NCBI GenBank assembly: GCA_964621395.1
Contig: CAZULS010000001.1
Span: forward strand, 245,106 to 309,105
DNA: 64,000 bases
Direction: 5' to 3'
DNA from: an uncultured Candidatus Saccharibacteria bacterium
GTDB taxonomy: Bacteria; Patescibacteriota; Minisyncoccia; Phycocordibacterales; JACNGX01
The notes under the pieces were generated by a model, which did no database searches, was not told the DNA's origin, and was given only the letters and a program-made list of their open reading frames with translations. Made by a program: the position numbers and the translations under genes. Positions 1,748 to 64,000 of this stretch are shown piece after piece. The number at the start of each line of letters is the position of its first letter. Position 1 is the stretch's first letter.

Positions 1748-1877
1748 GATCCCGCATCACCAGAGCCCCACTTTCACCAATATCATTTGCAGTAAAACAT
1801 CTTTTTCCCCTCTCCTACAATCTACGATTTCTTAATATATTCAGTGAAAGTGAAGCTCGGCAGGAGCCAGGAATGAC
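1748..1877. repeat. MITE-like element, family 1 (about 130 nt, 'cactttcac' family)
   Basis: gatcccgcatcaccagagccccactttcacc...ttcagtgaaagtgaagctcggcaggag... The ends are roughly 35-nt inverted repeats. Near-identical copies lie at 11940..12070, 12337..12468 and 41488..41618. Confidence 0.7.
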
Positions 1878-2272: not shown

Positions 2273-3568
2273 ATGATTCAAAATCACAACGATATCGCTA
2301 CAACTCCTTTGCGGGAAGATGCACTCGCTATTCTTGAGGCGGGGTATATGGCGATTGACACAAAAGAAGCTATGGGGCGACAGTTTAGAAAAGAGGGCAA
2401 TACGCTTTTCATTGGCGATACCACGTACGATCTTTCTTCCTATAGCCATGTATATGTTGTGGCTTTTGGGAAATGTGCCGCTCTCGCCTCGGAAGTGGTG
2501 GAAGAGGTATTGGAGGAAGTAATCACCGATGGTGTTGTCATTGATGTGCGCAGTGGTGCGGAGCTCTCGCGTTTGCAGTATCACAAGGGAACGCATCCGT
2601 TTCCTTCCGAGGCAAATGTCATGGCAACCCACAATATTGAGGCGATGTTGAAAAAGGCAACGGAAAAAGACTTGGTCGTGGTCGTTGTTTCAGGCGGTGG
2701 CTCTTCTTTACTGTGCTCTCCACACGACATGACATGCGAAGCGCTCACCGATATCACGGATGCGCTCTTCCGCGCGGGCGCAACGATTGATGAATTGAAT
2801 ACCGTACGCAAGCATACATCGCGTGTGCAGGGCGGACAGCTTGCCGCGCTGGCGCATCCTGCGACGGTCGTCTCCTGTGTGTTCTCCGATGTTCCCGGGA
2901 ACAATCTCTCGGTCATTGCTTCGGGTCCAACAATTCTTGACCAAACAACCAAAGAAGATGCGGCACGCGTCCTCGCGAAATACGACATTCTTGAAATATG
3001 CACGCTGCCGGAGTGTGAACTCGTGGAGACACCAAAGGACCCGCATATATTCGCACGTGTCTACCATACGCTTATCGTCACCAACGACAGTATGCTTTCG
3101 GCAATGGCAAAGGAAGCACACAAAAGGGGATATGACGCTCGTATTGAGGGCACCAATGTGCAGGGTGAGGCCTCACGTGTTGGTGCTCGAATTGCACGTA
3201 ATGCATGTGCACGAAAGAGCTGTCTTCTCTATGGCGGAGAAACGACGGTAACCGTCGGCAATGCAAAAGGAAAGGGAGGACGCAATCAAGAGGTGGCGCT
3301 TGGTGCGCTCGTACACATGATAGATTCTCTGGACACACCACAAAAACTGGTACTCGGCGCTGCCTCCGACGGATGGGATAATGGTCCTGTTGCAGGAGCA
3401 ATTGCCGATAGCTCTGTTGCAGCGAGTGCCGCTCTTTCTGGGCTTGATCCGGAAGCATATCTTGAAGCCCATGATGCATATCCATTTTTTGAAGAAACGA
3501 ACGCACACATCATCACTGGACGAACAGGCGCAAATGTTGCCGATGTGTATATGAGTTTGACCGCATAA
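2273..3568 (+). CDS. Glycerate 2-kinase (MOFRL family, GckA/TtuD-like)
   Basis: Internal ATG (MIQNHNDIATTP) of ORF 2225..3568. N-terminal DUF4147-like region (VVAFGKCAALASEV) and C-terminal MOFRL motif (GGETTVTVGNAKGKGGRNQEVAL). Confidence 0.65.
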   Translation: MIQNHNDIATTPLREDALAILEAGYMAIDTKEAMGRQFRKEGNTLFIGDTTYDLSSYSHVYVVAFGKCAALASEVVEEVLEEVITDGVVIDVRSGAELSRLQYHKGTHPFPSEANVMATHNIEAMLKKATEKDLVVVVVSGGGSSLLCSPHDMTCEALTDITDALFRAGATIDELNTVRKHTSRVQGGQLAALAHPATVVSCVFSDVPGNNLSVIASGPTILDQTTKEDAARVLAKYDILEICTLPECELVETPKDPHIFARVYHTLIVTNDSMLSAMAKEAHKRGYDARIEGTNVQGEASRVGARIARNACARKSCLLYGGETTVTVGNAKGKGGRNQEVALGALVHMIDSLDTPQKLVLGAASDGWDNGPVAGAIADSSVAASAALSGLDPEAYLEAHDAYPFFEETNAHIITGRTGANVADVYMSLTA

Positions 3569-5636: not shown

Positions 5637-5712
5637 GTCATCCCGCACTTGATGCGGGATCTAAACGTTAAGAAACAATTCTCTCGAGATCCCGCATCAA
5701 GTGCGGGATGAC
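5637..5712. repeat. Hairpin-unit pair (gtcatcccgcacttgatgcgggatc ... gatcccgcatcaagtgcgggatgac), family 1 short form
   Basis: Two 25-nt palindromic units in inverted orientation, separated by 25 nt. The same unit recurs at more than 20 intergenic sites, for example 15504..15529, 15561..15586 and 61088..61220. Confidence 0.7.
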
Positions 5713-5800
5713 AAGATGTGTCTTTTTACCGTTAACTTTTTTTAATCTCCTAATATTTTAATTTTCTTTTTTGTTTGTTCTTCTTTTTTATTCTCCTACT

Positions 5801-5833
5801 GTGCCCGAGCACGACTTGTCGTGCTTTAGGGTC
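5801..5833 (-). repeat. REP-like 30-nt hairpin repeat (gcctaaagcaYgacRagtcRYgctcggcca family)
   Basis: The reverse complement matches copies at 13511..13540 and 47631..47660. Confidence 0.5.
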
Positions 5834-9728: not shown

Positions 9729-9757
9729 AAAATACCCACCTCGGTGGGTATTTTGCC

Positions 9758-10261
9758 TCATAACGAAAGTTCTTCCAGCTCCTCTATAGTAAGAGCTGTT
9801 CCGTCCACTCTCTTTCCGATACAGATTCTCGTAATCTGTTCGGTTGTTGTTTTGGGATCAAACTTGATGCTTACCCAACGTTTCTGAGCAAGTTCTTTTG
9901 CTTCGGAAAATGTTGCTGTCCCGTAAAGCACAAGAATGACGGTTGACTCGTGAAATCCTTCTCGCATGTACGCAAAGATATATTTTTCGTCTTTGCGAAG
10001 TGCGACATCCTTAATCTTTTGCGACGGTTTCGGTTTGTCAACGATAGGACTGGCGTCCTTCTCCCACACTTCAAGAGAAGGGTCGCTGATCTCACCGTGT
10101 TTTGAATCATAGCATAACCGCTCCCACAGCAGTATTGCTTCTTCAAGCGCCGCTTCTTTTTCGCGGGCATTAAGAGGCTCTTGAAGGTAGCCCCTGCACC
10201 CTTCTTTGTACTGAAGGACAAATTTTTGTGTTGATCTCAGGTCTTTTGTTGCTTTTGCCAT
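9758..10261 (-). CDS. Hypothetical protein (167 aa)
   Basis: Clean minus-strand ORF between eno and the 2-hydroxyacid dehydrogenase gene, co-directional with the small ORF 10273..10455. No recognisable motif. Confidence 0.35.
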   Translation of the reverse strand: MAKATKDLRSTQKFVLQYKEGCRGYLQEPLNAREKEAALEEAILLWERLCYDSKHGEISDPSLEVWEKDASPIVDKPKPSQKIKDVALRKDEKYIFAYMREGFHESTVILVLYGTATFSEAKELAQKRWVSIKFDPKTTTEQITRICIGKRVDGTALTIEELEELSL

Positions 10262-10455: not shown

Positions 10456-10784
10456 GGTATTCTTTTTAGGGTTGTGCAAGACTGCTCTTTTTCTACCAAT
10501 TTTGAGATAAAAAAGCAAGGGGAGTGAACGAAGACTTACTCACTTTATTGTCATCCCGCACTTGATGCGGGATCTTCTCGAATAGTACAAAAAACTTTAG
10601 ATTCCCGTTCAAGCTGGGAATGACAGGGGAATAAATGATGTGCAACAAAGTCAGATTCGTATGTTCGTACACATTCGTACTTCGTACCCATTTCAGGAAA
10701 TAAGCCCTATAAGCTATCAGCTAAAAGCTACAAGCCAGATATGATATAATATCAGTGTTTTAATCATTACATTATTAAACCTGT

Positions 10785-11795: not shown

Positions 11796-11939
11796 AAATA
11801 CGAAAAACGAAATATGAAATATGTATAAGCGGCGCGGGGCTTTCGCCCCGCGCCGCTTTTCTTTTCGTACCTTCTTTCTTTGTCATTCCGGACTTGATCC
11901 GGAATCTTCGACAGGTTGTTTTCGAAGGCTGTTTGGGGA

Positions 11940-12070
11940 GATCCCGCATCACCAGAGCTCCACTTTCACCAATATCATTTGCAGTAAAACATCTTTTGTC
12001 CCCTCTCCTACCGTCTACGATTTCTTAATATATTCAGTGAAAGTCGAGCTCGGCAGGAGTGCGGGATGAC
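11940..12070. repeat. MITE-like element, family 1
   Basis: Same termini and core as 1748..1877. Preceded by a solo hairpin unit gtcattccggacttgatccggaatc (11882..11906). Confidence 0.7.
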
Positions 12071-12107
12071 ACCATATCTTTACTTATACAAAAAAGTATC
12101 GTAAGAT

Positions 12108-12284
12108 ATGGACATGGAACTCTATAGTTACAAAGTCATTATTGAGCCGGAGGAGGACGGCGGATACCACGGATCTGTGCCCTTGCTCAAGGGTGTGCAT
12201 GTGTGTGCCGACACGATTGATGACACAAAAGACGATTTGAAAGAAGCGATTCGATGTCATATTCAGGGGCTTTCGATTGCATAG
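12108..12284 (+). CDS. HicB-like (UPF0150) antitoxin-family small protein
   Basis: 58-aa ORF below the track cut-off: MDMELYSYKVIIEPEEDGGYHGSVPLLKGVHVCADTIDDTKDDLKEAIRCHIQGLSIA. The pattern Y-x-V-I-E-x-E-E-D-G-G-Y, P-L-L-K-G-V, and G-x-T-I-D-E/D-A is the HicB/UPF0150 signature. It sits between two family-1 MITEs. Confidence 0.45.
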   Translation: MDMELYSYKVIIEPEEDGGYHGSVPLLKGVHVCADTIDDTKDDLKEAIRCHIQGLSIA

Positions 12285-12336
12285 ATTCTGTCATTCTGAG
12301 CTCGACTCAGAATCTCCAATATATTTTTTCAGACTA

Positions 12337-12468
12337 GATTCCGCATCACCAGAGCCTCACTTTCACCAATATCATTTGCAGTAAAATATCTTTCATCCCT
12401 TCTCCTACCGTCTACGATATCTTAATGTGTTCAGTGAAAGTGAAGCTCGGCAGGAGTGCGGGATGACA
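12337..12468. repeat. MITE-like element, family 1
   Basis: gattccgcatcaccagagcctcactttcacc...gtgaaagtgaagctcggcaggagtgcgggatgaca. Confidence 0.7.
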
Positions 12469-12514
12469 ATTTCATTTTATGAAGCGGCGCGGCTATGCCG
12501 CGCCGCTTCATATA

Positions 12515-12553
12515 TTAATCTCCTAACATATTAATTTCCTAATCTCCTGACGT
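12515..12553 (+). promoter_or_regulatory. Conserved 5' module (taatctcctaacatattaatttcctaatctcct-N5-ATG)
   Basis: Same about 40-nt sequence immediately 5' of obg, gap (19268..19313), rpiB (20722..20764), ORF 41725 (41683..41724) and, diverged, the csaA-like gene (23555..23620) and rpe. Confidence 0.5.
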
Positions 12554-13516
12554 ATGTCTTTTATCGACGAATACCAGTTTAATGCAAAAGCAGGGAAGGG
12601 CGGCGACGGTGTCGTTCGTTGGTTGCATATGAAAGGAAAAGAATTTGGCGGTCCTGCAGGTGGCGACGGCGGCAAAGGTGGCGACGTGTATATTCGTGGT
12701 GTGCGCGATGTGGCGCTTCTTGCTAAGTATCGCAGTAAGAATGAATTTATCGCTGAACATGGGGAGAGCGGTGGTGGCAAAAAAATGAAAGGAAAAAATG
12801 GAGACGATCTCTATATCGATTTGCCTATCGGTTCGCTCGTCACCAATACCGATACGTATGAGACGTTTGAGATTATGGAAGAAGGAGAGAGTCATTTGGT
12901 TCTTGCCGGAGGTGAGGGTGGTTTGGGCAATGATCGTTTCAAAAGTTCACGAAATATCCGTCCGGAAGAATCCACGCCCGGGCAAGTTGGGCAGGAAGGA
13001 CATTTCTCCGTAGAGCTTCGTCTTATTGCTGATATCGGCTTGGTGGGCATGCCCAATGCCGGAAAGTCGTCGCTCTTGAATGCGCTTACCAAAGCAGAAG
13101 CGAAAATCGGCGCGTATCCTTTCACTACGCTTGAGCCGAATCTCGGCGTGCTCTACGGACGCGTGATTGCCGATATTCCCGGCCTCATCGAAGGTGCGTC
13201 AGAAGGGAAGGGTGTAGGGCACAAATTTCTTCGCCATGTGAGCCGCACACGCATGCTTGTGCATTGTGTCTCGTGTGAACACGAGAATGTGAAAGAAGCG
13301 TATGAAACGATTCGCGCGGAGCTCGAAGCGCACGGTGACGGGCTCTCAGAAAAGAGTGAAATGATCCTTCTCACGAAGACCGATATGTGCACGTCGGAAG
13401 AGGTGCAAGCAAAAAAAGAAGCACTTGCGACATACGGCAAACGTGTGGAAGACGTGACCGTCCTTGATGATGACATGGTGAAGCGGATAGGGGAAATCTT
13501 TGTTGGGAATGCCTAA
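12554..13516 (+). CDS. obg: GTPase Obg/CgtA (short form, no C-terminal OCT/TGS domain)
   Basis: 320 aa. N-terminal Gly-rich Obg fold (AGKGGDGVVRW, GGDGGKGGDV). G domain with GMPNAGKSS (G1) and DIPGLIEGA (G3). Confidence 0.85.
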   Translation: MSFIDEYQFNAKAGKGGDGVVRWLHMKGKEFGGPAGGDGGKGGDVYIRGVRDVALLAKYRSKNEFIAEHGESGGGKKMKGKNGDDLYIDLPIGSLVTNTDTYETFEIMEEGESHLVLAGGEGGLGNDRFKSSRNIRPEESTPGQVGQEGHFSVELRLIADIGLVGMPNAGKSSLLNALTKAEAKIGAYPFTTLEPNLGVLYGRVIADIPGLIEGASEGKGVGHKFLRHVSRTRMLVHCVSCEHENVKEAYETIRAELEAHGDGLSEKSEMILLTKTDMCTSEEVQAKKEALATYGKRVEDVTVLDDDMVKRIGEIFVGNA

Positions 13517-13540
13517 AGCACGACAAGTCGCGCTCGGCCA
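13511..13540 (+). repeat. REP-like hairpin repeat overlapping the obg stop codon
   Basis: gcctaaagcacgacaagtcgcgctcggcca; the taa stop of obg is inside the repeat. Confidence 0.5.
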
Positions 13541-13658
13541 CAGTAGAAAAATGAAATACGAAATATGTATGCGCGGACCTGTCGGTCCGCGCGGGATTAA
13601 AAAATAAGGAGGACAACCAAACAAGGTTGTCCTCTCTGAGTAGGAATAGGTCCGATAC

Positions 13659-15388: not shown

Positions 15389-15734
15389 GAGTCGTACCTT
15401 TTGCTTTGATTTTAGTTAATGTACTTTCCACAGCAAGCATAACACATGATTCGTTAGAATGAAACACGCACGGCACGGTAGATATGGGATATACAAATAA
15501 GCTGTCATTCCGGCCTGCGAGCCGGAATCTAGGATTGTGTCTCTGGTGGTGGTTTGCGAAGATCCCGCATCAAGTGCGGGATGACAGGAACCTTTTGTTT
15601 TTAGAAGAAGTGCGCGGCGCCGTAGGCGCCGCGCACTTCTCGCAACAGGGTGCTCACAACTCGAAACTCACAAAAATGACAATATAAGCTATTTCTGCTA
15701 TTCTTAATCCGTAATTCTTAATTCCCTTGGCCGT

Positions 15735-19102: not shown

Positions 19103-19313
19103 GAGGTCATCCTGTTTTTTCGGTTAAAAGGTGTTACGTCCTCTCCTTTTGTACCATAAACATGTGGAAAATCAAAATGTGGTATACTGTGTATAAGAGC
19201 TCTTCGGGTTTCTGGTACTGTATGATAAGATTCCGAATCAAGTCCGGAATGACACTCATTGGCTTTTAGGTATTTTTAATTTCCTAATCATTAACCTCCT
19301 AATCTCCTGTACT

Positions 19314-20487: not shown

Positions 20488-20619
20488 GTCATTCTGAACT
20501 CCTGCCGAGCTTCACTTTCACTGATTACAGAAGAAAACAATAGACGATAGAAGAAAGAACAGAAAGTATGTGGATGAAAAATGCTATTGGTGAAAGTGGG
20601 GCTCTGGTGATTCAGAATC
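20488..20619. repeat. MITE-like element, family 1 variant (gtcattctgaac...gattcagaatc termini)
   Basis: Part of a composite gap-rpiB spacer (20355..20764): tacaaat/tacgaa-rich stretch, this MITE, a solo hairpin unit (20634..20659), a TTCGTA x4 array, then the 5' module. An about 85% identical composite fills rpiB-rpe (21233..21598). Confidence 0.65.
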
Positions 20620-20764
20620 TAGGAGACGACGAAGATTCCGCATCAAGTGCGGAATGACAATGAAAGTGGATAATGTACTAAAAGTCAGATTCGTATGTTC
20701 GTACACGTTCGTAGTTCGTAACCTTTGTAATCTCCTAACATTTAATTTCCTAATCTCCTCAATT

Positions 20765-21232
20765 ATGCTTATTCACATCGCATCAGATCACGCAGGACTT
20801 GCGCTCAAAGAACATCTTCAGGGCGTGCTTGAGTCTCTCGGGCATGAGGTTGTTGATTATGGTCCGAACGAGTATGACAAAGACGATGACTATCCTGATT
20901 TTGTCCGTCCGGCGGCGGAAGCGGTGGGGGAGGCATATTGCTCAGGACAAACAGACGTGCGCGGTATTGTCATTGGCGGCTCCGGGCAAGGCGAAGCGGT
21001 TGTGGCTAATCGCGTGAAGGGTGTTCGTGCAGCAGTGTGGTATGGTGGCGATATGCACTTGGTTATGCTTTCTCGAGAGCATAATGATGCAAATGTTCTG
21101 TCGCTCGGAGCGCGATTCATGGATAAAGGGATTGCCGAAGAAGTGGTGAAGATGTGGCTTGATACACCGTTTTCCAATGACGAGCGCCATATTCGGAGGA
21201 TTAAAAAAATCGATAAAACGAATTACGAATAA
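20765..21232 (+). CDS. rpiB: Ribose-5-phosphate isomerase B
   Basis: Internal ATG MLIHIASDHAG (RpiB/LacAB family) of ORF 20654..21232. The upstream part of the track ORF is translated repeat sequence. Confidence 0.85.
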   Translation: MLIHIASDHAGLALKEHLQGVLESLGHEVVDYGPNEYDKDDDYPDFVRPAAEAVGEAYCSGQTDVRGIVIGGSGQGEAVVANRVKGVRAAVWYGGDMHLVMLSREHNDANVLSLGARFMDKGIAEEVVKMWLDTPFSNDERHIRRIKKIDKTNYE

Positions 21233-21598
21233 GTACGAATATACGAACGGTACAAATCTCTACAAATATGAATTTACGTTTAAAAGCTCATTATTTGTCA
21301 TTCTGAACTCCTGCCGAGCCCCACTTTCACTGGACACATCAAGAAATCATGAACGATAGAAGAAAAAATGAAAGATATGTTACTGCAAATGATATTGGTG
21401 AAAGTGGGGCTCTGGTGATTCAGAATCTAGAAAACGATGGAGATTCCGCATCACCAAGCACCATTTTCACTAAAGTGAAAAAAGTGCTCGGCACAGAGTG
21501 CGGAATGACAATGAAAGTGGATGATGTGCTAAAAGTCAGATTCGTATGTTCGTACTCATTCGTACTTCGTACCCGATACCATTCTTAATTCTCTTCTC

Positions 21599-22297
21599 AT
21601 GCTTGAAATTATCCCTGCCATTATTCCGGAAAGCGTAGAGGATCTCTCCGAAAAGCTTTCTCGTGTTGCCGGTCTTGCATCTGTTGTGCAAATTGATTTT
21701 GTCGATGGTGTGTTTGTGCCCGATGCCGCTCCTTCGTGGCCGTTTCATGACACAAAAGAAGAAGGGGTGTTCAGCACGCTCGGTACAGAGGAAGAAGGTT
21801 TGCCTTTCTGGGACACTTTTTTCTTTGAAGCTGACCTCATGGTAAAAGAGCCCGAGCATATCATCGACGATATTATCGGTGCCGGATTTTCTCGCGTTAT
21901 TCTCCATGCCGGGAGCTCCGGGAAGATTGCCGAAATCTTCGATACACTGCGATCGTATGACATTGAGACAGGTCTTGCTCTTTCTGTCGGCGACGATATA
22001 GAACAATATGCATCGCTTCTTGAAAAAGCGGATGTCATTCAAGTGATGGGCATTGAGCACATCGGCAGGCAAGGAGAAAGGCTGTCTCCGGACGCACTTC
22101 TTCTCTTATCCACTTTGCGGGGGCAGTATCCCGAGCGTATAATAAGTGTCGATGGAGGCGTGAATGTGGAGAACGCGCCCATTCTCGTTGGCGAGGGAGC
22201 CGACCGTCTTGTCTCAGGTTCCGCACTTTTCGGTAGTGATGATATTGCCGGAGTGCTGGCAAAATTTTATTCTCTGGAAGAACCTGTCTCAAGTTAA
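21599..22297 (+). CDS. rpe: Ribulose-phosphate 3-epimerase-like TIM-barrel protein
   Basis: 232 aa. QIDFVDGVFVP resembles the Rpe HLDVMDGHFVPN metal site. The last 19 nt including the stop lie inside a family-2 MITE. Confidence 0.6.
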   Translation: MLEIIPAIIPESVEDLSEKLSRVAGLASVVQIDFVDGVFVPDAAPSWPFHDTKEEGVFSTLGTEEEGLPFWDTFFFEADLMVKEPEHIIDDIIGAGFSRVILHAGSSGKIAEIFDTLRSYDIETGLALSVGDDIEQYASLLEKADVIQVMGIEHIGRQGERLSPDALLLLSTLRGQYPERIISVDGGVNVENAPILVGEGADRLVSGSALFGSDDIAGVLAKFYSLEEPVSS

Positions 22298-22473
22298 ATG
22301 GCTTATTCTCGTTCCGAGCATTCGAGCGAGTCGAAGTCTCGGAGACTGAAGCGTACTGTCTGTACGATGAAGTTGAGAGACAAGACGCAGCCGGATGCTC
22401 GGTGCGAGAATTGCCAAGCGCACACGAAGTGAGGTGAATATTATGTGGGCGTTTTAACGTGAGACAGGTTCTC
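22279..22473. repeat. MITE-like element, family 2 (about 195 nt)
   Basis: aagaacctgtctcaagttaaatggcttattctcg...gagaattgccaagcg...ttaacgtgagacaggttctcag. Copies at 29928..30125, 32835..32938 (short form), 36680..36877, 43062..43259 and 44526..44724. Confidence 0.7.
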
Positions 22474-23357: not shown

Positions 23358-23620
23358 CAATGAAATGCACAAATCACAAGCATCAAATAACAAATAATAC
23401 TCAAATTCGAAATATCAAAATCTATGAGTTGTCATTCCGGGCTTGACCCGGAATCCAGGAAACACACGAAGATTCCGGATCAAGTCCGGAATGACAATGA
23501 AAGTGGACAATGTGCCAAAAGCTAGATTCGTATGTCCGTACAAATTCGTAGTTCGTAACCTTTTATTCTCCTTATTTACTAACATACTTATCTCCTAACG
23601 TGTGATTTATAATTCTATAT

Positions 23621-29927: not shown

Positions 29928-30125
29928 TAGAACTCATCTCATGTTAAACCGCTGGAAACAACACTTTTCACTTCGTTCATATGCTTGGCAATTCTCGCAC
30001 CACATATTCGGCTGCACCTTGTCTCTCAACCGCACCGCACGAACAGTGCGGCACGGTCTCCGAGACATCGGCTCGCTCGAATATTCGGCACGAGAATAAG
30101 CCATTTAATATGAGATGAGTTCTAG
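29928..30125. repeat. MITE-like element, family 2, inserted between the pilN-like and pilO-like genes
   Basis: tagaactcatctcatgttaaa...ccatttaatatgagatgagttctag. Its terminal ATGAGTTCTAG supplies the ATG (30115) of the downstream gene. Confidence 0.7.
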
Positions 30126-36679: not shown

Positions 36680-36877
36680 CTAGAACCAGTCTCACTGAAA
36701 ATGGCTTGTTCTCACGCCCAAACAGCGAGCGAGCCGACGTCGCGGAGACCGTGCCGCACTGCCGTGCGGTGCGGTTGAGCGACAAGGCGCAGCCGCCACG
36801 TGGGCGTGGGAACTGCCAAGCGCAGCTCTTGAATATGTTTCCATTATTTTTCAATGTTTTCAGTGAGACTGGTTCTA
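36680..36877. repeat. MITE-like element, family 2
   Basis: ctagaaccagtctcactgaaaatggcttgttctcacgcc...gggaactgccaagcg...cagtgagactggttcta. It overlaps the 5' part of track ORF 36664 and contains the only in-frame ATG (36835) for the downstream pilin-like gene. Confidence 0.7.
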
Positions 36878-39504: not shown

Positions 39505-39698
39505 ATACATTATCACTGTCATTCCCGCCCCCGAGCTGGAATCCTGCTGTAATTGATTCGGAAGATAAGTTAGAAAGAAGCCGCGACACTAAAGGTGCCG
39601 CGACATCTTTTTCTTTTTTACATATTTATATCTGTCATCCAAATTTCCCTCTAAGCTAAAAGCTATCAGCTACAAGCTCTATATGCTATACTACCCCT

Positions 39699-41437: not shown

Positions 41438-41487
41438 TTAAGATGTTGTCATTCCGGCCCCCGAGCCGGAATCCAAAAAATCACGAA

Positions 41488-41618
41488 GATTCCGCATCAC
41501 CAGAGCCCTACTTTCACCAGTATCATTTGCAGCAAAACATTTTTCATTCCTTCTTCTACCGTCTACGATTTCTTAATGTATCTAGTGAAAGTGAGGCTCG
41601 GCAAGAGTACGGAATGAC
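41488..41618. repeat. MITE-like element, family 1
   Basis: gattccgcatcaccagagccctactttcacc...agtgaaagtgaggctcggcaagagtacggaatgaca, followed by the TTCGTA array and the 5' module. Confidence 0.7.
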
Positions 41619-41724
41619 AATAGAAGTGGATAATGTACTAAAGGTCAGATTCGTATGTTCGTACCGATTCGTAGTTCGTAACCTTTTTATTCTCCTAACC
41701 TTTAATTTCCTAATCTCCTGATGT

Positions 41725-42330: not shown

Positions 42331-42657
42331 GAACTAGAATAAAGAATGAAGAATTATGCCTAGCCCGTGCCGAGCCACGGTCGGCCTAGGGAATAAAGAA
42401 TAAAAGGTGCGGCTCACGCCGCACCTTTTATGTATCCCACTTGTCATTTCGTACCCAAACTCTGTCATTCCGGGCTTGACCCGGAATCTCAAAAACAATC
42501 CCACACCTCTCAACACTTCAGAAAATAAAAAAAGCCCGCGGCTTTTGCCAAGGCTCCGCGGGGCACTCGTGCGGCTTGCGTAATAAAAGAGGATATGGTA
42601 CTATCGTGTATACGAAGCCGAGAACGGCTTTTTCATTTGAAATATATGGTATTCCAT

Positions 42658-43061: not shown

Positions 43062-43259
43062 TAGAACCCATCTCATATTAAATGGTGTATTCTCGCGCTC
43101 TCTCGCTGAGCGAGTCGATGTCGCGGAGACCGTGCCGCACTTTCGTGCGGTGCGGTTGAGCGACGAGACGCAGCCAGCGAGAGAGTGCGAGAATTGCCAA
43201 GCATGATACACAGAGTGTAGAAGTATTGTTTCTGGCGGTTTAATGTGAGATGGGTTCTG
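43062..43259. repeat. MITE-like element, family 2
   Basis: ctagaacccatctcatattaaatgg...gagaattgccaagc...taatgtgagatgggttctg; lies 8 nt before tRNA-Met. Confidence 0.7.
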
Positions 43260-44525: not shown

Positions 44526-44724
44526 CAGAACTCATCTCACATTACATGGCTTGTTCTCGCGCCAAGGATTCGAGCGAGTCGCAGTCTCGGAGACCGAAGC
44601 GTACTATTGTACGATGAGGTTGAGAGGCAAGACGCAGCCGAATACTTGGCGCGAGAACTGCCAAGCGATTATGCGTAGCGTGAGAATATCACTACCTTAG
44701 CGGTGTAATGTGAGATGAGTTCTG
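44526..44724. repeat. MITE-like element, family 2
   Basis: Starts 2 nt after the rpmG stop and ends 16 nt before tRNA-Asp: cagaactcatctcacattacatggcttgttctcgcgcc...gcgcgagaactgccaagcg...taatgtgagatgagttctgg. Confidence 0.7.
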
Positions 44725-45520: not shown

Positions 45521-45748
45521 CAGAAAATCAAAAGACAAAAAACAATAGTCAAATACCAAATAAAAAGGAAATATCAAACACAAAAACACAAAAGCGGCGC
45601 GTAGCGTCGCTTTTTGATACACGGCATTATTTGTCATTCCCAGCTTGACTGGGAATCTTCGCTGTTTTGTTTTTAGAGGTTATTCGAGAAGATCCCGCAT
45701 CAAGTGCGGGATGACAGGATATGTGTGTTCCGTGCTATACTGTCCACT

Positions 45749-46645: not shown

Positions 46646-46910
46646 CGCCTTTCGTGTTCAGTATTGTCAAAAAAGCGAAGATCCCGCATCAAGTGCGGGA
46701 TGACAGGTACTTTTATTGTTTATTTTCCATTGTTTGTTCGTAGGCATTTTTTGCTTTTTTCGTTTTGGTGTATAATACTCTTACGAACGTACAAATTGTT
46801 ACATATCTACAAATGGTACGAATAATACAAATCCGTTTCTAACGCCAGGTGGTCATTTGTATTATTCGTACCATTTGTAAATTAGTATGTATTCGTAGAT
46901 TTGGAGTCTT

Positions 46911-47603: not shown

Positions 47604-47630
47604 GAACGATGAACGGTAAACGATAAACGA

Positions 47631-47660
47631 GCCTAAAGCATGACGAGTCATGCTCGGCCA
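47631..47660 (+). repeat. REP-like hairpin repeat (gcctaaagcatgacgagtcatgctcggcca)
   Basis: Third copy of this family; preceded by the aacggtaaacgataaacg motif. Followed by a family-1 MITE variant (47685..47751) and a solo hairpin unit (47765..47789). Confidence 0.5.
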
Positions 47661-47840
47661 CGTAAAAATAATTTGTCATTCTGAACTCTCGCCGAGCTCG
47701 ACCCAGCTCTTTCTCGGAAAGGGCTGGGTGGGGCTCTGGTGATTCAGAATCTAAGAATTCTTGGATTCCGGGTCGAGCCCGGAATGACCGCAGAGCCGCG
47801 GAGCGGCGATTCCTAGAAGCTAAAAGCTATTTCCTAATAT

Positions 47841-61087: not shown

Positions 61088-61220
61088 GTCATCCCGCACT
61101 TGATGCGGGATCTCCAATATATTTTCACTAAAAACTGTTTGAAAACCAAAGTTGAGCTTTGATATGAATACCAAAGCTCAACTTTGGTTTTCTGGATCCC
61201 GCATCAAGTGCGGGATGACA
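61088..61220. repeat. Hairpin-unit pair element (family 1 short form) with an internal 16-bp hairpin
   Basis: gtcatcccgcacttgatgcgggatc ... accaaagttgagctttg-N14-caaagctcaactttggt ... ggatcccgcatcaagtgcgggatgaca. Confidence 0.65.
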
Positions 61221-63279: not shown

Positions 63280-64000
63280 GACGATTAACGATAAACTTTT
63301 AGACGATAAAGAAGCAGCGCGGGACCTTTGGCCCCGCGCTGCTTTCGATTCCGGTTCTATACTGTCATCCTGCACTTGATTCTATATTGCCGCGCGGATG
63401 CAATGCGGTATCTTTGCAGATTCTGAATCAAGTTCAGAATGACAAAAATAATGTATATGTCACAAAAAAGCCGCGCTATACGCGCGGCTCTTGTCATCTT
63501 GTGTCCCATCGTGTTGCGGCAAAAAACGCAATCTGGGCGAGTATTTCCGCATTAGGCACTAAGGCTTCCGCAGACTCTTTGTCCGGAAAGGTGTCTTCCG
63601 ACTTAGAATCTTTTCTCTGATGCTCCTGCTTTTTCGTTTCCTCATTTTCATCCCCCGACATTATTACCACCTCCCTTTTTGAAGCACGAGTAGGTTATGG
63701 ATTCTCTAATCTCCTCCACAACATCCCCCGAGCCGTTCGCTCGTCTCCTAGCTTTGTCTTTTTTCGATTTCTTATCTGTCAGGGAGCATTTACATTCTCC
63801 CTTCTGTCTCTTGTCGTTTCCCGTACTGTGTGTACAGACGTGATAACCTGTGTCTGCCATACGTTTTTATTTTTTGAGGATTTACAAATATTACAAAAAG
63901 AACATAAAATATAACCTCCTTAGTAAATCATATATTGCTTTGTAAATCAATTGTTCTTTTCTTCTATACGTCAATTTGATATACTGGACATGTTATGGGA

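Follow-up and report, generated by a model that had tools for sequence, protein, structure and literature searches.

The best described relatives of the element discussed here are found in Neisseria. According to PMC11893778, a longer, oriented motif called NTS, CGTCATTCCCGCGMAVGCGGGAATCYRG, includes the neisserial dRS3 repeat (ATTCCC-N8-GGGAAT), and NTS-like motifs, designated Ssn-related motifs (SRM), are present in bacteria at large, with R. wittichii, Wolbachia, Rickettsia and Sphingomonas as named examples. The same source describes ssnA, a 94-aa single-domain GIY-YIG gene flanked by SRM-type motifs. SsnA binds the hairpin as single-stranded DNA (ssDNA) only, on one strand only, and cuts a few nucleotides upstream; binding depends critically on the C directly 3' of the palindrome and cleavage on the 3 nt upstream, and the loop is not required and may be exchanged for extensions (PMC11893778). 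Here, we describe a repeated 25-nt hairpin unit in a 64,000-nt stretch of contig CAZULS010000001.1 (positions 245,106 to 309,105; the whole stretch is called the window), together with a truncated hicB gene that lies between two inverted pairs, or doublets, of such units. We consider it probable that the unit is a Parcubacteria-lineage member of the SRM class, i.e., an oriented ssDNA hairpin that is arranged in doublets and has nested forms, and that the second doublet at the hicB locus truncated an ancestral hicBA.

The dRS3-type repeat of Neisseria has also been treated as a REPIN that is mobilised by a Group 2 RAYT (bioRxiv 10.1101/2021.07.10.451892), and the integrase of phage Nf1 targets the CT at the centre of dRS3 (PMC7058167). 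Together with the reports on Ssn, the literature therefore offers three candidate enzymes for this class of hairpins. In the NIME, a 20-bp inverted repeat, ATTCCC-N8-GGGAAT, flanks 50-150-bp RS repeat families in arrays (PMC1797815). A full-text literature search for the CTTGA-type unit sequence gave no match, and it was the related dRS3-type string GTCATTCCCGCG that led to PMC11893778. The presence of the SRM class in Parcubacteria-type genomes appears to be new and so, against the accessible part of that source, do the nested, loop-expanded forms.

The hairpin unit and its doublets

A preliminary description of this DNA had proposed a palindromic unit, GTCATYCCGNNCTTGANNCGGRATC, at more than 20 intergenic sites. 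When two mismatches are allowed, this pattern has 18 matches in the window and none in 100 shuffles. A strict hairpin search yields 19 copies of the 25-nt unit, to which half-site searches add loop variants at 15504, 39518, 41448 and 63364 and eight split or expanded units. The proposal is thus borne out by a total of ~31 unit-equivalents across 19 intergenic regions (~1 per 2 kb), none of which lies within a coding sequence supported by Pfam.

The layout of the unit is GTC-AT-stem-CTTGA-stem-AT-C. In an ungapped alignment of 21 copies, GTCAT, the second stem position and ATC are invariant; alignment positions G4, T5 and C6, 5' of the palindrome, and C28, directly 3' of it, are the same in 21/21 units. 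The CTTGA loop is kept in at least 90% of these copies, with CTCGA and TTTAA as variants. The unit hairpin is maintained by compensatory changes: the 8-bp stem is 98.7% paired, with two-sided changes in five of the eight pairs, which was reached by none of 500 shuffles, and pairing drops to 12-49% in slid controls. The stem subtypes are CCCGCA/TGCGGG, TCCGGA, TCCGGG/CCCGGA, TCCCAG/CTGGGA, TCTGAA/TTCAGA and TCTGAG/CTCAGA. In the aligned copies, the unit is followed by TTC or CAG, without T runs or a U-tract.

The published SRM pattern, given as HGTCWYN(0-2)YYVSBRHN(0-5)WNVSBRGN(0-2)RNCYNB in PMC11893778, is matched exactly by seven CCCGCA-type units of the window, as against 0.18 expected in Markov-shuffled sequence. 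The determinants recognized by SsnA coincide with the invariant positions of the unit, which explains how its loop can be expanded while GTC, the base of the stem and the 3' C stay in place. All three are retained in every expanded form discussed below. Ssn-family genes in annotated records were located with a consensus sequence, which was validated by the resulting matches. Among them, the gene for a 'GIY-YIG nuclease family protein' of Novosphingobium pNL2 lies between two CTTGA-loop hairpins that form an inverted, head-out pair, and the N. gonorrhoeae homologue is flanked by NTS.

Thirteen inverted doublets are present in the window, and in 13/13 the GTCAT ends point outward. The order is GTCAT-hairpin-ATC, a spacer of 12-82 nt, and GAT-hairpin-ATGAC, with outer termini that are alike (TGTCAT...ATGACA). 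Units are almost always paired in this way; single units are also common. The inverted pairs reported earlier at 5637-5712, 15504-15585 and 61088-61219 are among them, the ends of the latter two being adjusted from 15586 and 61220. The spacers fall into families (11882 and 45633; 12290 and 61088; 20488, 21297, 23431 and 41448); therefore, whole doublets are copied, not units alone. The usual position of a doublet is downstream of a canonical GC-rich terminator and upstream of a promoter/leader module, and several spacers (gap-rpiB-rpe, 41438-41724) lack a canonical terminator.

Several doublets adjoin a ~100-nt module located 3' of the right-hand unit and 5' of the leader (10647-10692, 20681-20726, 21532-21577, 23518-23563 and 41641-41686). 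It comprises AATGAAAGTGGATAATGTACTAAAAGTCAGA followed by four TTCGTA hexamers, and looks like a portable promoter/operator module moving with or beside doublets.

The repeats are distributed patchily. In this comparison, contigs of relatives and viral loci carry L numbers. The unit family is dense in the window and sparse or absent in relatives, and doublets are present or absent at orthologous intergenic sites. Thus, L192 contains no units in 14 kb, including the spacers orthologous to the 15504 and 19229 sites of the window, and L201, a relative with ~70% coding identity, has a single doublet, expanded in both arms, at a spacer where the window has none. Such an uneven distribution and the lack of target-site duplications (see below) fit non-autonomous mobile or recombinogenic DNA and not conserved cis-regulatory elements.

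The 25-nt unit is not specific to this lineage. Its exact pattern is found in 117 IMG/VR stretches where less than one was expected, many of them high-GC phage or gene-transfer-agent-like clusters, and BLAST with the CCCGGA subtype retrieved Sphingomonadales replicons, including Rhizorhabdus wittichii, in which the repeat was always unannotated. The unit thus crosses phyla and fits the SRM/NTS-dRS3 class. When the unit is defined more loosely, as GTCAT, 6-nt stem, 4-7-nt loop, stem and ATC, the loops in the IMG/VR loci fall into two classes, CTTGA and GNRA-like (GAAA, GCAG), and close pairs again prefer the head-out arrangement (32 vs 6 head-in). When the open reading frames (ORFs) near units in IMG/VR contigs were clustered, only phage or gene-transfer-agent-like structural genes and no recurrent nuclease or transposase were found. 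Two of these phage-like contigs, L116 and L189, each have more than 10 SRM-type units in a single orientation between small genes. Other hairpin repeats are interspersed, as are units in which foreign sequence follows the left half. Such dense one-strand arrays are unlike the doublets of the window.

The long form of the repeat is much more restricted. Scans by exact pattern of 185,579 species genomes and of JGI metagenomes revealed one real relative, the contig L008 (= L074) of a Parcubacteria metagenome-assembled genome, other matches being due to chance; its copy at 676-808 is 94.7% identical to window 12336-12468. None was found in viral contigs. A diverged long form with the same arms, and with core motifs AGACGGTA and TTACTGCAA, is present in the obg-DHHA1 spacer of L201.

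Loop-expanded forms and the hicB locus

The preliminary description also listed a ~130-nt element whose ends would be the unit split open around inner inverted repeats. Its sites are confirmed, and one unlisted copy, 21297-21427, brings the number of long copies to six: those at 1748, 11940, 12337 and 41488 have the unit on the minus strand, and those at 20488 and 21297 on the plus strand. Of two short expanded forms, 21442-21509 and 47675-47751, the latter starts at 47675 and not at 47685. The alignment bears out the split, which lies exactly between ACT and TGA of the loop, and all expanded units share one register, TGTCATYCYGNACT / CYTGCCGAGC ... GCTCTGG / TGATKCRGRATC. The insert is an imperfect palindrome of 43-125 nt, its inner arms being CCTGCCGAGCyyCACTTTCAC / GTGAAAGTGrrGCTCTGG. 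It directly follows the CT of the loop in each of the nine expanded units, and the base and flanks of the unit are intact. Inspection of the alignment for a coding function of the 130-nt core showed only short, non-conserved ORFs.

The nesting is directly seen around rpiB. The identities of gap, rpiB and rpe are supported by Pfam, and the gap-rpiB and rpiB-rpe spacers are paralogous over ~330 nt with 83% identity. The sole clean indel of 43 nt between them is located inside the loop of the right-hand unit (21442-21509 vs 20634-20658), as had been proposed when the one spacer was described as carrying the collapsed and the other the expanded unit. The pair is an empty and a filled site within one genome. 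The 43-nt insert equals the long insert minus its core.

Folding of the long form depends on the strand. RNAalifold gave -43.4 kcal/mol and 44 pairs, many of them invariant G.U pairs, for the GTCAT...ATC strand, as against -29.3 kcal/mol and 34 pairs for its complement. With DNA folding parameters, the GTCAT strand was the more stable one in 7/7 long copies.

A decayed loop-expanded unit is located at 1549-1665; its arms, CACCAAGCACC...GGTGCTCGGTC, are like those at 21454-21497, its halves are degenerate, and its core is a different sequence of ~90 nt. Further, a family of small hairpins, CCTAAAGCAYGAC-N4-GTCRYGCTCGGCCAC, is found directly after stop codons (13510-13545, 47630-47665, 42340-42380 and ~5795-5830), and the 3' part of these hairpins (GCTCGGC) resembles the inner arms of the loop inserts.

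Two composite doublets, 11882-12070 and 12290-12467, flank the hicB gene; in the right arm of the first, ACT and TGA of the loop are separated by an imperfect palindrome of 106 nt (11952-12057). The preliminary description mentioned a 58-aa HicB/UPF0150-like ORF here. Its HicB character stands, as PF15919 (HicB_lk_antitox) scores 28.7 bits (cut-off 27); UPF0150, at 25.3 bits, stays below its cut-off of 27.3, and the gene starts at 12114 rather than at 12108. Compared with homologues of 82-83 aa, the protein is 92% identical through ...CHIQGL (residues 1-53), after which it continues with SIA and a stop codon. It thus ends after residue ~53-55 of 82, without the ~27 C-terminal residues. The absence of a hicA partner was also right, since tblastn of the window finds no hicA.

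In relatives, the synteny of this region is conserved. Contigs were chosen as carriers of the three closest HicB homologues, and the order 2-Hacid_dh, hicB (82 aa), hicA (77-80 aa, PF07927) and obg is found in L192, L193, L194, L195, L199, L201 and L202, both hicB and hicA being intact in L192, L194, L199, L201 and L202. The closest relative, L200 (~85% nucleotide identity in genes), has a full hicB and no unit at this locus, and its hicA (2928-3161) has an in-frame TAG at codon 26. Alignment with L200 defines two breakpoints. At the first, the sequence that separates the upstream terminator from the probable hicB promoter module has gained doublet 11882-12070; this module, TTTACT-17 nt-TAAGAT, is conserved upstream of both hicB and obg in L200. 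This doublet is absent as a whole at the orthologous site in L200, L192 and L201, and the empty site in L200 is clean and without duplication. At the second breakpoint, homology stops at 12272 and resumes at the terminator and the obg leader; ~330 nt, comprising the last ~27 hicB codons and all of hicA, are replaced by 17 nt and doublet 12290-12467.

By gene order, hicB-hicA is ancestral at the locus and not cargo of the element, because the same synteny is found in relatives without elements. Of the earlier wording, in which hicB was 'carried or stranded' by the element, only the latter word fits, and what is stranded is a truncated relic. The element, or recombination between elements, destroyed hicBA, plausibly after the toxin had already decayed, since the stop codon in hicA of L200, where hicB is intact, makes it appear that toxin decay preceded the deletion in the window. 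Directly after obg, L192 (5603-6979), like L193, L194, L195 and L199, contains a pair resembling a diversity-generating retroelement (RVT_1 reverse transcriptase and bAvd), which is absent at the corresponding place in the window.

Enzymes, alternative explanations and a proposed mechanism

Some of the results weigh against the assignment to the SRM class, the first of which concern the enzyme. A Pfam scan of the 56 window ORFs showed only housekeeping genes, type IV pilus genes and domain-less ORFs, and no GIY-YIG, Y1 (RAYT, PF01797), IS110 or DDE domain. Likewise, tblastn with three Ssn sequences (N. gonorrhoeae, Novosphingobium and a consensus) found no homologue in the window or in ~60 kb of relatives' contigs; a faint match at 9741-9824 was noise. 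As ssn-type genes are typically single-copy, 64 kb is not a fair test of the absence of the enzyme. A GIY-YIG regular expression had no match in the window or in the relatives' contigs examined, and the ORFs between spaced units in IMG/VR loci did not yield a cognate enzyme.

Other points against it lie in the repeats themselves. Only the CCCGCA subtype fits the SRM pattern, the other stem types being one position off. The copies come from one genome and are non-independent, which weakens the statistics for covariation and for the folding of 7/7 copies. Unlike in typical REPINs, the arms differ in their stem in 11/13 doublets, the same stem being found only in 5637/5688 and 61088/61195. Composite doublets of a simple unit, a spacer and an expanded unit occur in both orientations, 4 vs 3, relative to genes that are uniformly on the plus strand and a positive GC skew, so that a strand bias such as that reported for ssDNA transposons is not seen. 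Finally, the inner arms of the insert were never seen outside a unit; hence, insertion and deletion from a long form are indistinguishable.

On the origin of the inserts, a more daring idea is that the loop of the unit is a landing site for a 'loop rider', i.e., a 43-125-nt palindrome with arms CCTGCCGAGC.../...GCTCTGG that exists only inside its host hairpin. It would be a parasite of a parasite that keeps the recognition determinants of its host and spreads with the doublets in the Parcubacteria clade, possibly without a RAYT or Ssn enzyme. We regard this idea as rather unlikely.

Alternatively, the 43-125-nt inserts may be remnants or miniature derivatives of integrations, the units serving as mere targets. 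Elements such as IS1397 and ISKpn1 insert into REP loops, and the position directly after the loop CT in all nine expanded units would fit such a process. However, the CT is not duplicated at the right junction (...CTCTGG/TGA), the arms of the insert are mutually complementary, unlike the ends of IS110 elements, and are confined to units, and no IS110-type gene is present in the window. We regard this explanation as unlikely.

The hairpins could also act as RNA, as signals for transcript ends or processing, mRNA stabilisers or insulators, the 130-nt form being a structured RNA with a variable apical stem. The covariation in the stem, the numerous invariant G.U pairs that the long form shows on one strand, the position between genes and the spacers without canonical terminator are all compatible with this. 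Yet, the better-folding strand is antisense to the flanking genes in 4/7 long copies, many units lie downstream of a canonical terminator and have no U-tract, and units are absent from orthologous spacers of relatives that retain the same genes. The promoter and terminator scan at the locus found only a separate hairpin, 11827-11858, so the units were rejected as intrinsic terminators. Nor was there a consistent promoter, and Rfam, run on the whole window at the gathering threshold and on the locus at E<=10, returned only tRNAs and noise. In Neisseria, it is the ssDNA and not the RNA form of the homologous hairpin that is bound (PMC11893778). We regard a function in RNA as quite unlikely.

Very unlikely, too, is a derivation of the 68-nt and then of the 25-nt forms from a long ancestral palindrome, the centre of which would have been lost repeatedly through slippage or excision of a hairpin. 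Long palindromes are prone to deletion, and the restriction of the inner arms to units and the short insert that equals the long one minus its core would agree with this course of events. In contrast, the 25-nt CTTGA form crosses phyla, whereas the long form is confined to one clade (the window, L008 and the diverged L201 copy only), and independent deletions would not all restore exactly CTTGA.

The least probable explanation, although the preliminary description had named the family accordingly, is a classical miniature inverted-repeat transposable element (MITE), i.e., a cut-and-paste deletion derivative of an insertion sequence with a DDE transposase, with the 25-nt unit as terminal inverted repeat and the 130-nt form as a nested insertion: the doublets do have identical outward termini and are short, non-coding, intergenic and polymorphic among relatives, but none of the 13 has a target-site duplication, each supposed terminal repeat is itself a covarying hairpin, the same 25-mer is found across phyla, single units are common, and the window has no transposase. 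Of the earlier designation, therefore, the descriptive part remains (miniature, dispersed, non-coding, palindromic, nested and non-autonomous-like). The longest strings common to the two flanks of the 13 doublets measure 3-5 nt, lie apart from the element and do not differ from the null distribution. A 9-bp imperfect direct repeat, CTTTTCGTA / CTTTACTTA, around the 11882 insertion was judged a low-complexity chance match, because no other doublet has a duplication. An autonomous insertion sequence with the same ends was not found within the window.

Returning to the assignment to the SRM class, the elements would act as ssDNA, for which the better folding of the GTCAT strand in 7/7 long copies is indirect support. 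A small Ssn nuclease of the GIY-YIG type (cd10448), which would be encoded elsewhere in the genome, may bind the GTCAT strand and nick it a few bases upstream, and a RAYT-type HUH enzyme may be an additional or alternative actor on this strand; we infer such an action from the homology of the motif. The activity of the enzyme, or recombination associated with it, would spread and reshuffle the doublets, and, as SsnA can act without the loop, expansion of the latter would be tolerated. At the hicB locus, an ancestral hicB-hicA operon was located between the 2-hydroxyacid dehydrogenase gene and obg. The first doublet entered between the upstream terminator and the hicB promoter, and the second took the place of the last ~27 hicB codons and of the whole hicA gene.

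Candidate-phyla-radiation bacteria have tiny genomes and are thought to depend on the uptake of DNA. The present data would extend the SRM class, and the older dRS3/REPIN problem, to these bacteria. Transforming ssDNA is restricted in Neisseria by the cognate nuclease; should this also apply here, the repeats mark which imported DNA is cut. The natural loop-expanded copies agree with the loop-independence of SsnA and indicate that hairpin repeats can grow by nesting. The locus also offers a clean, dated example of repeat-associated gene loss, affecting hicA and the 3' end of hicB. In practice, the repeats break short-read assemblies of this organism, which is represented in the read sets SRR8146440 and SRR8146441, and Logan contigs carrying obg are only ~1 kb.

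Features of the window and comparison with known systems

Table 1. Repeats and hicB-locus features of the window. Coordinates are those of the 64,000-nt stretch.
Coordinates	Strand	Feature	Evidence
1748..1877	-	Loop-expanded unit, single, right half degenerate	
5637..5712		Head-out doublet of two simple units, both CCCGCA	Pattern and hairpin search
10550..10624		Head-out doublet; diverged doublet at orthologous site of L200, left arm different and loop-expanded	
11827..11858	+	Intrinsic terminator of upstream 2-hydroxyacid dehydrogenase gene; repeats downstream	Terminator scan; hairpin conserved in L200
11882..11906	+	Simple SRM-type unit, stem TCCGGA, loop CTTGA; left arm of doublet 11882-12070	
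11940..12070	-	Loop-expanded unit, right arm of doublet 11882-12070; halves 11940-11951 and 12058-12070	Alignment, folding
12079..12107	+	Probable hicB promoter TTTACT, 17 nt, TAAGAT, abutting start codon	Inferred, read from sequence
12114..12284	+	3'-truncated hicB relic: residues 1-53 homologous, 3 foreign codons, stop	Pfam, tblastn, breakpoint alignment
12290..12314	+	Simple unit, stem TCTGAG, loop CTCGA; left arm of doublet 12290-12467	
12337..12467	-	Loop-expanded unit, right arm of doublet 12290-12467	91% identical to 11939-12071
12481..12510	+	GC-rich hairpin, retained counterpart of terminator after hicA in relatives	Comparison with L200
15504..15585		Head-out doublet, left unit with variant 6-nt loop; absent from orthologous DHHA1-gatB spacer of L192	
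19229..19253	-	Single unit upstream of gap, one G.T wobble on GTCAT strand	
20488..20658		gap-rpiB spacer doublet: loop-expanded unit 20488-20619 and simple unit 20634-20658	
21297..21509		rpiB-rpe spacer doublet: loop-expanded unit 21297-21427 and unit with 43-nt loop hairpin 21442-21509	
23431..23495		Head-out doublet, simple units	
41448..41618		Doublet: variant-loop unit 41448-41473 and loop-expanded unit 41488-41618	
42464..42488	+	Single unit	
45633..45715		Head-out doublet; spacer related to 11882-11951 (74% over 76 nt)	
46680..46704	-	Single unit	
47675..47788		Doublet: unit with 42-nt loop hairpin 47675-47751 (arms as in L201 long form) and simple unit 47764-47788	
61088..61219		Head-out doublet, 82-nt spacer holding another hairpin	
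63364..63443		Doublet, left unit degenerate	

Besides the features in Table 1, the window contains a second, unrelated repeat family of 192-195 nt (22280-22471, 29930-30122 in the opposite orientation, 36683-36875, 43064-43257 and 44528-44722). Its five copies, where none is expected, are bounded by 11-bp inverted repeats, GAACYNRTCTC...GAGAYNRGTTC, and have no Rfam match. Internal stems appear to covary (e.g., TTCTCGCGCC.../...GGCGCGAGAA), and several copies adjoin tRNA genes. Directly 5' of the ATG of obg, gap, rpiB and other genes, leaders with two to four tandem copies of (A)CTAAYCTCCTA are found (12513-12553, 19273-19313, 20724-20765 and 41684-41724). They are also present in L192 (13070-13145), L200 (3255-3294) and L201 (9500-9575) and are conserved at only ~70% coding identity. 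The sequence resembles the anti-Shine-Dalgarno strand of 16S rRNA, not a Shine-Dalgarno site, and may be a signal for Shine-Dalgarno-independent translation or a promoter-proximal signal. Runs of AAGCTA/AAGCTM (ctataagctatcagctaaaagctacaagc) located just 5' of TATAAT-like boxes (1900-1945, 10710-10752, 39650-39690 and 47815-47840) may be UP-element-like promoter modules.

With regard to known systems, the window ORF shares with the HicAB type II toxin-antitoxin module the N-terminal HicB signature (PF15919) and is located where relatives have hicB-hicA. It differs from this module in its truncated hicB and deleted hicA, and the HicAB module of the window is decaying, and is neither functional nor mobile.

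The hairpin family shares with SRM/NTS the oriented GTC-AT...AT-C(YAG) flanks, the ATTCC...GGAAT stem base, the hundreds of intergenic copies implied by the density in the window, and a loop that tolerates change or extension, which has been shown biochemically for SsnA (PMC11893778); furthermore, CTTGA-loop versions flank the Ssn-family gene in a sphingomonad. It differs in a stem that is one pair shorter (ATYCCGNN), in having CTTGA instead of a GNRA-like loop, in its Parcubacteria-type host, a group without mention in PMC11893778, and in the natural loop-expanded nested palindromes, which the accessible part of that paper does not describe.

In its arrangement, the family resembles the REPIN-RAYT system and the BIMEs of E. 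coli (PMC3116915, PMC3337134, bioRxiv 10.1101/2021.07.10.451892): two inverted hairpins are separated by a short spacer (less than 130 bp in REPINs, 12-82 nt in the window), singlets also occur, the copies are intergenic and have no target-site duplications, and the mosaic of unit subtypes and spacer families recalls BIMEs. However, near-identical arms are found in only 2/13 doublets, a window doublet does not form a single long perfect hairpin, the 5' motif is GTC-AT and not GTAG, and the window has no RAYT gene. With the NIME, the family has in common the ATTCC(C/G)...(C/G)GGAAT inverted repeat, repeat families in the spacers and arrays that vary between related genomes. The window unit is ATYCCG-N9-CGGRAT, with a centre of 9 nt rather than 8 and mostly a G at position 6, ATTCCC...GGGAAT being present in two copies only, and it forms doublets with spacers of 12-82 nt instead of long arrays. 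As in dRS3 with Nf1, the centre of the hairpin (CT) is the site of foreign DNA, which in the window consists of small palindromes and not of phages. On these comparisons of sequence, the family would be best filed with the ssDNA hairpins of the SRM/NTS (dRS3) type, arranged as REPIN-like doublets.

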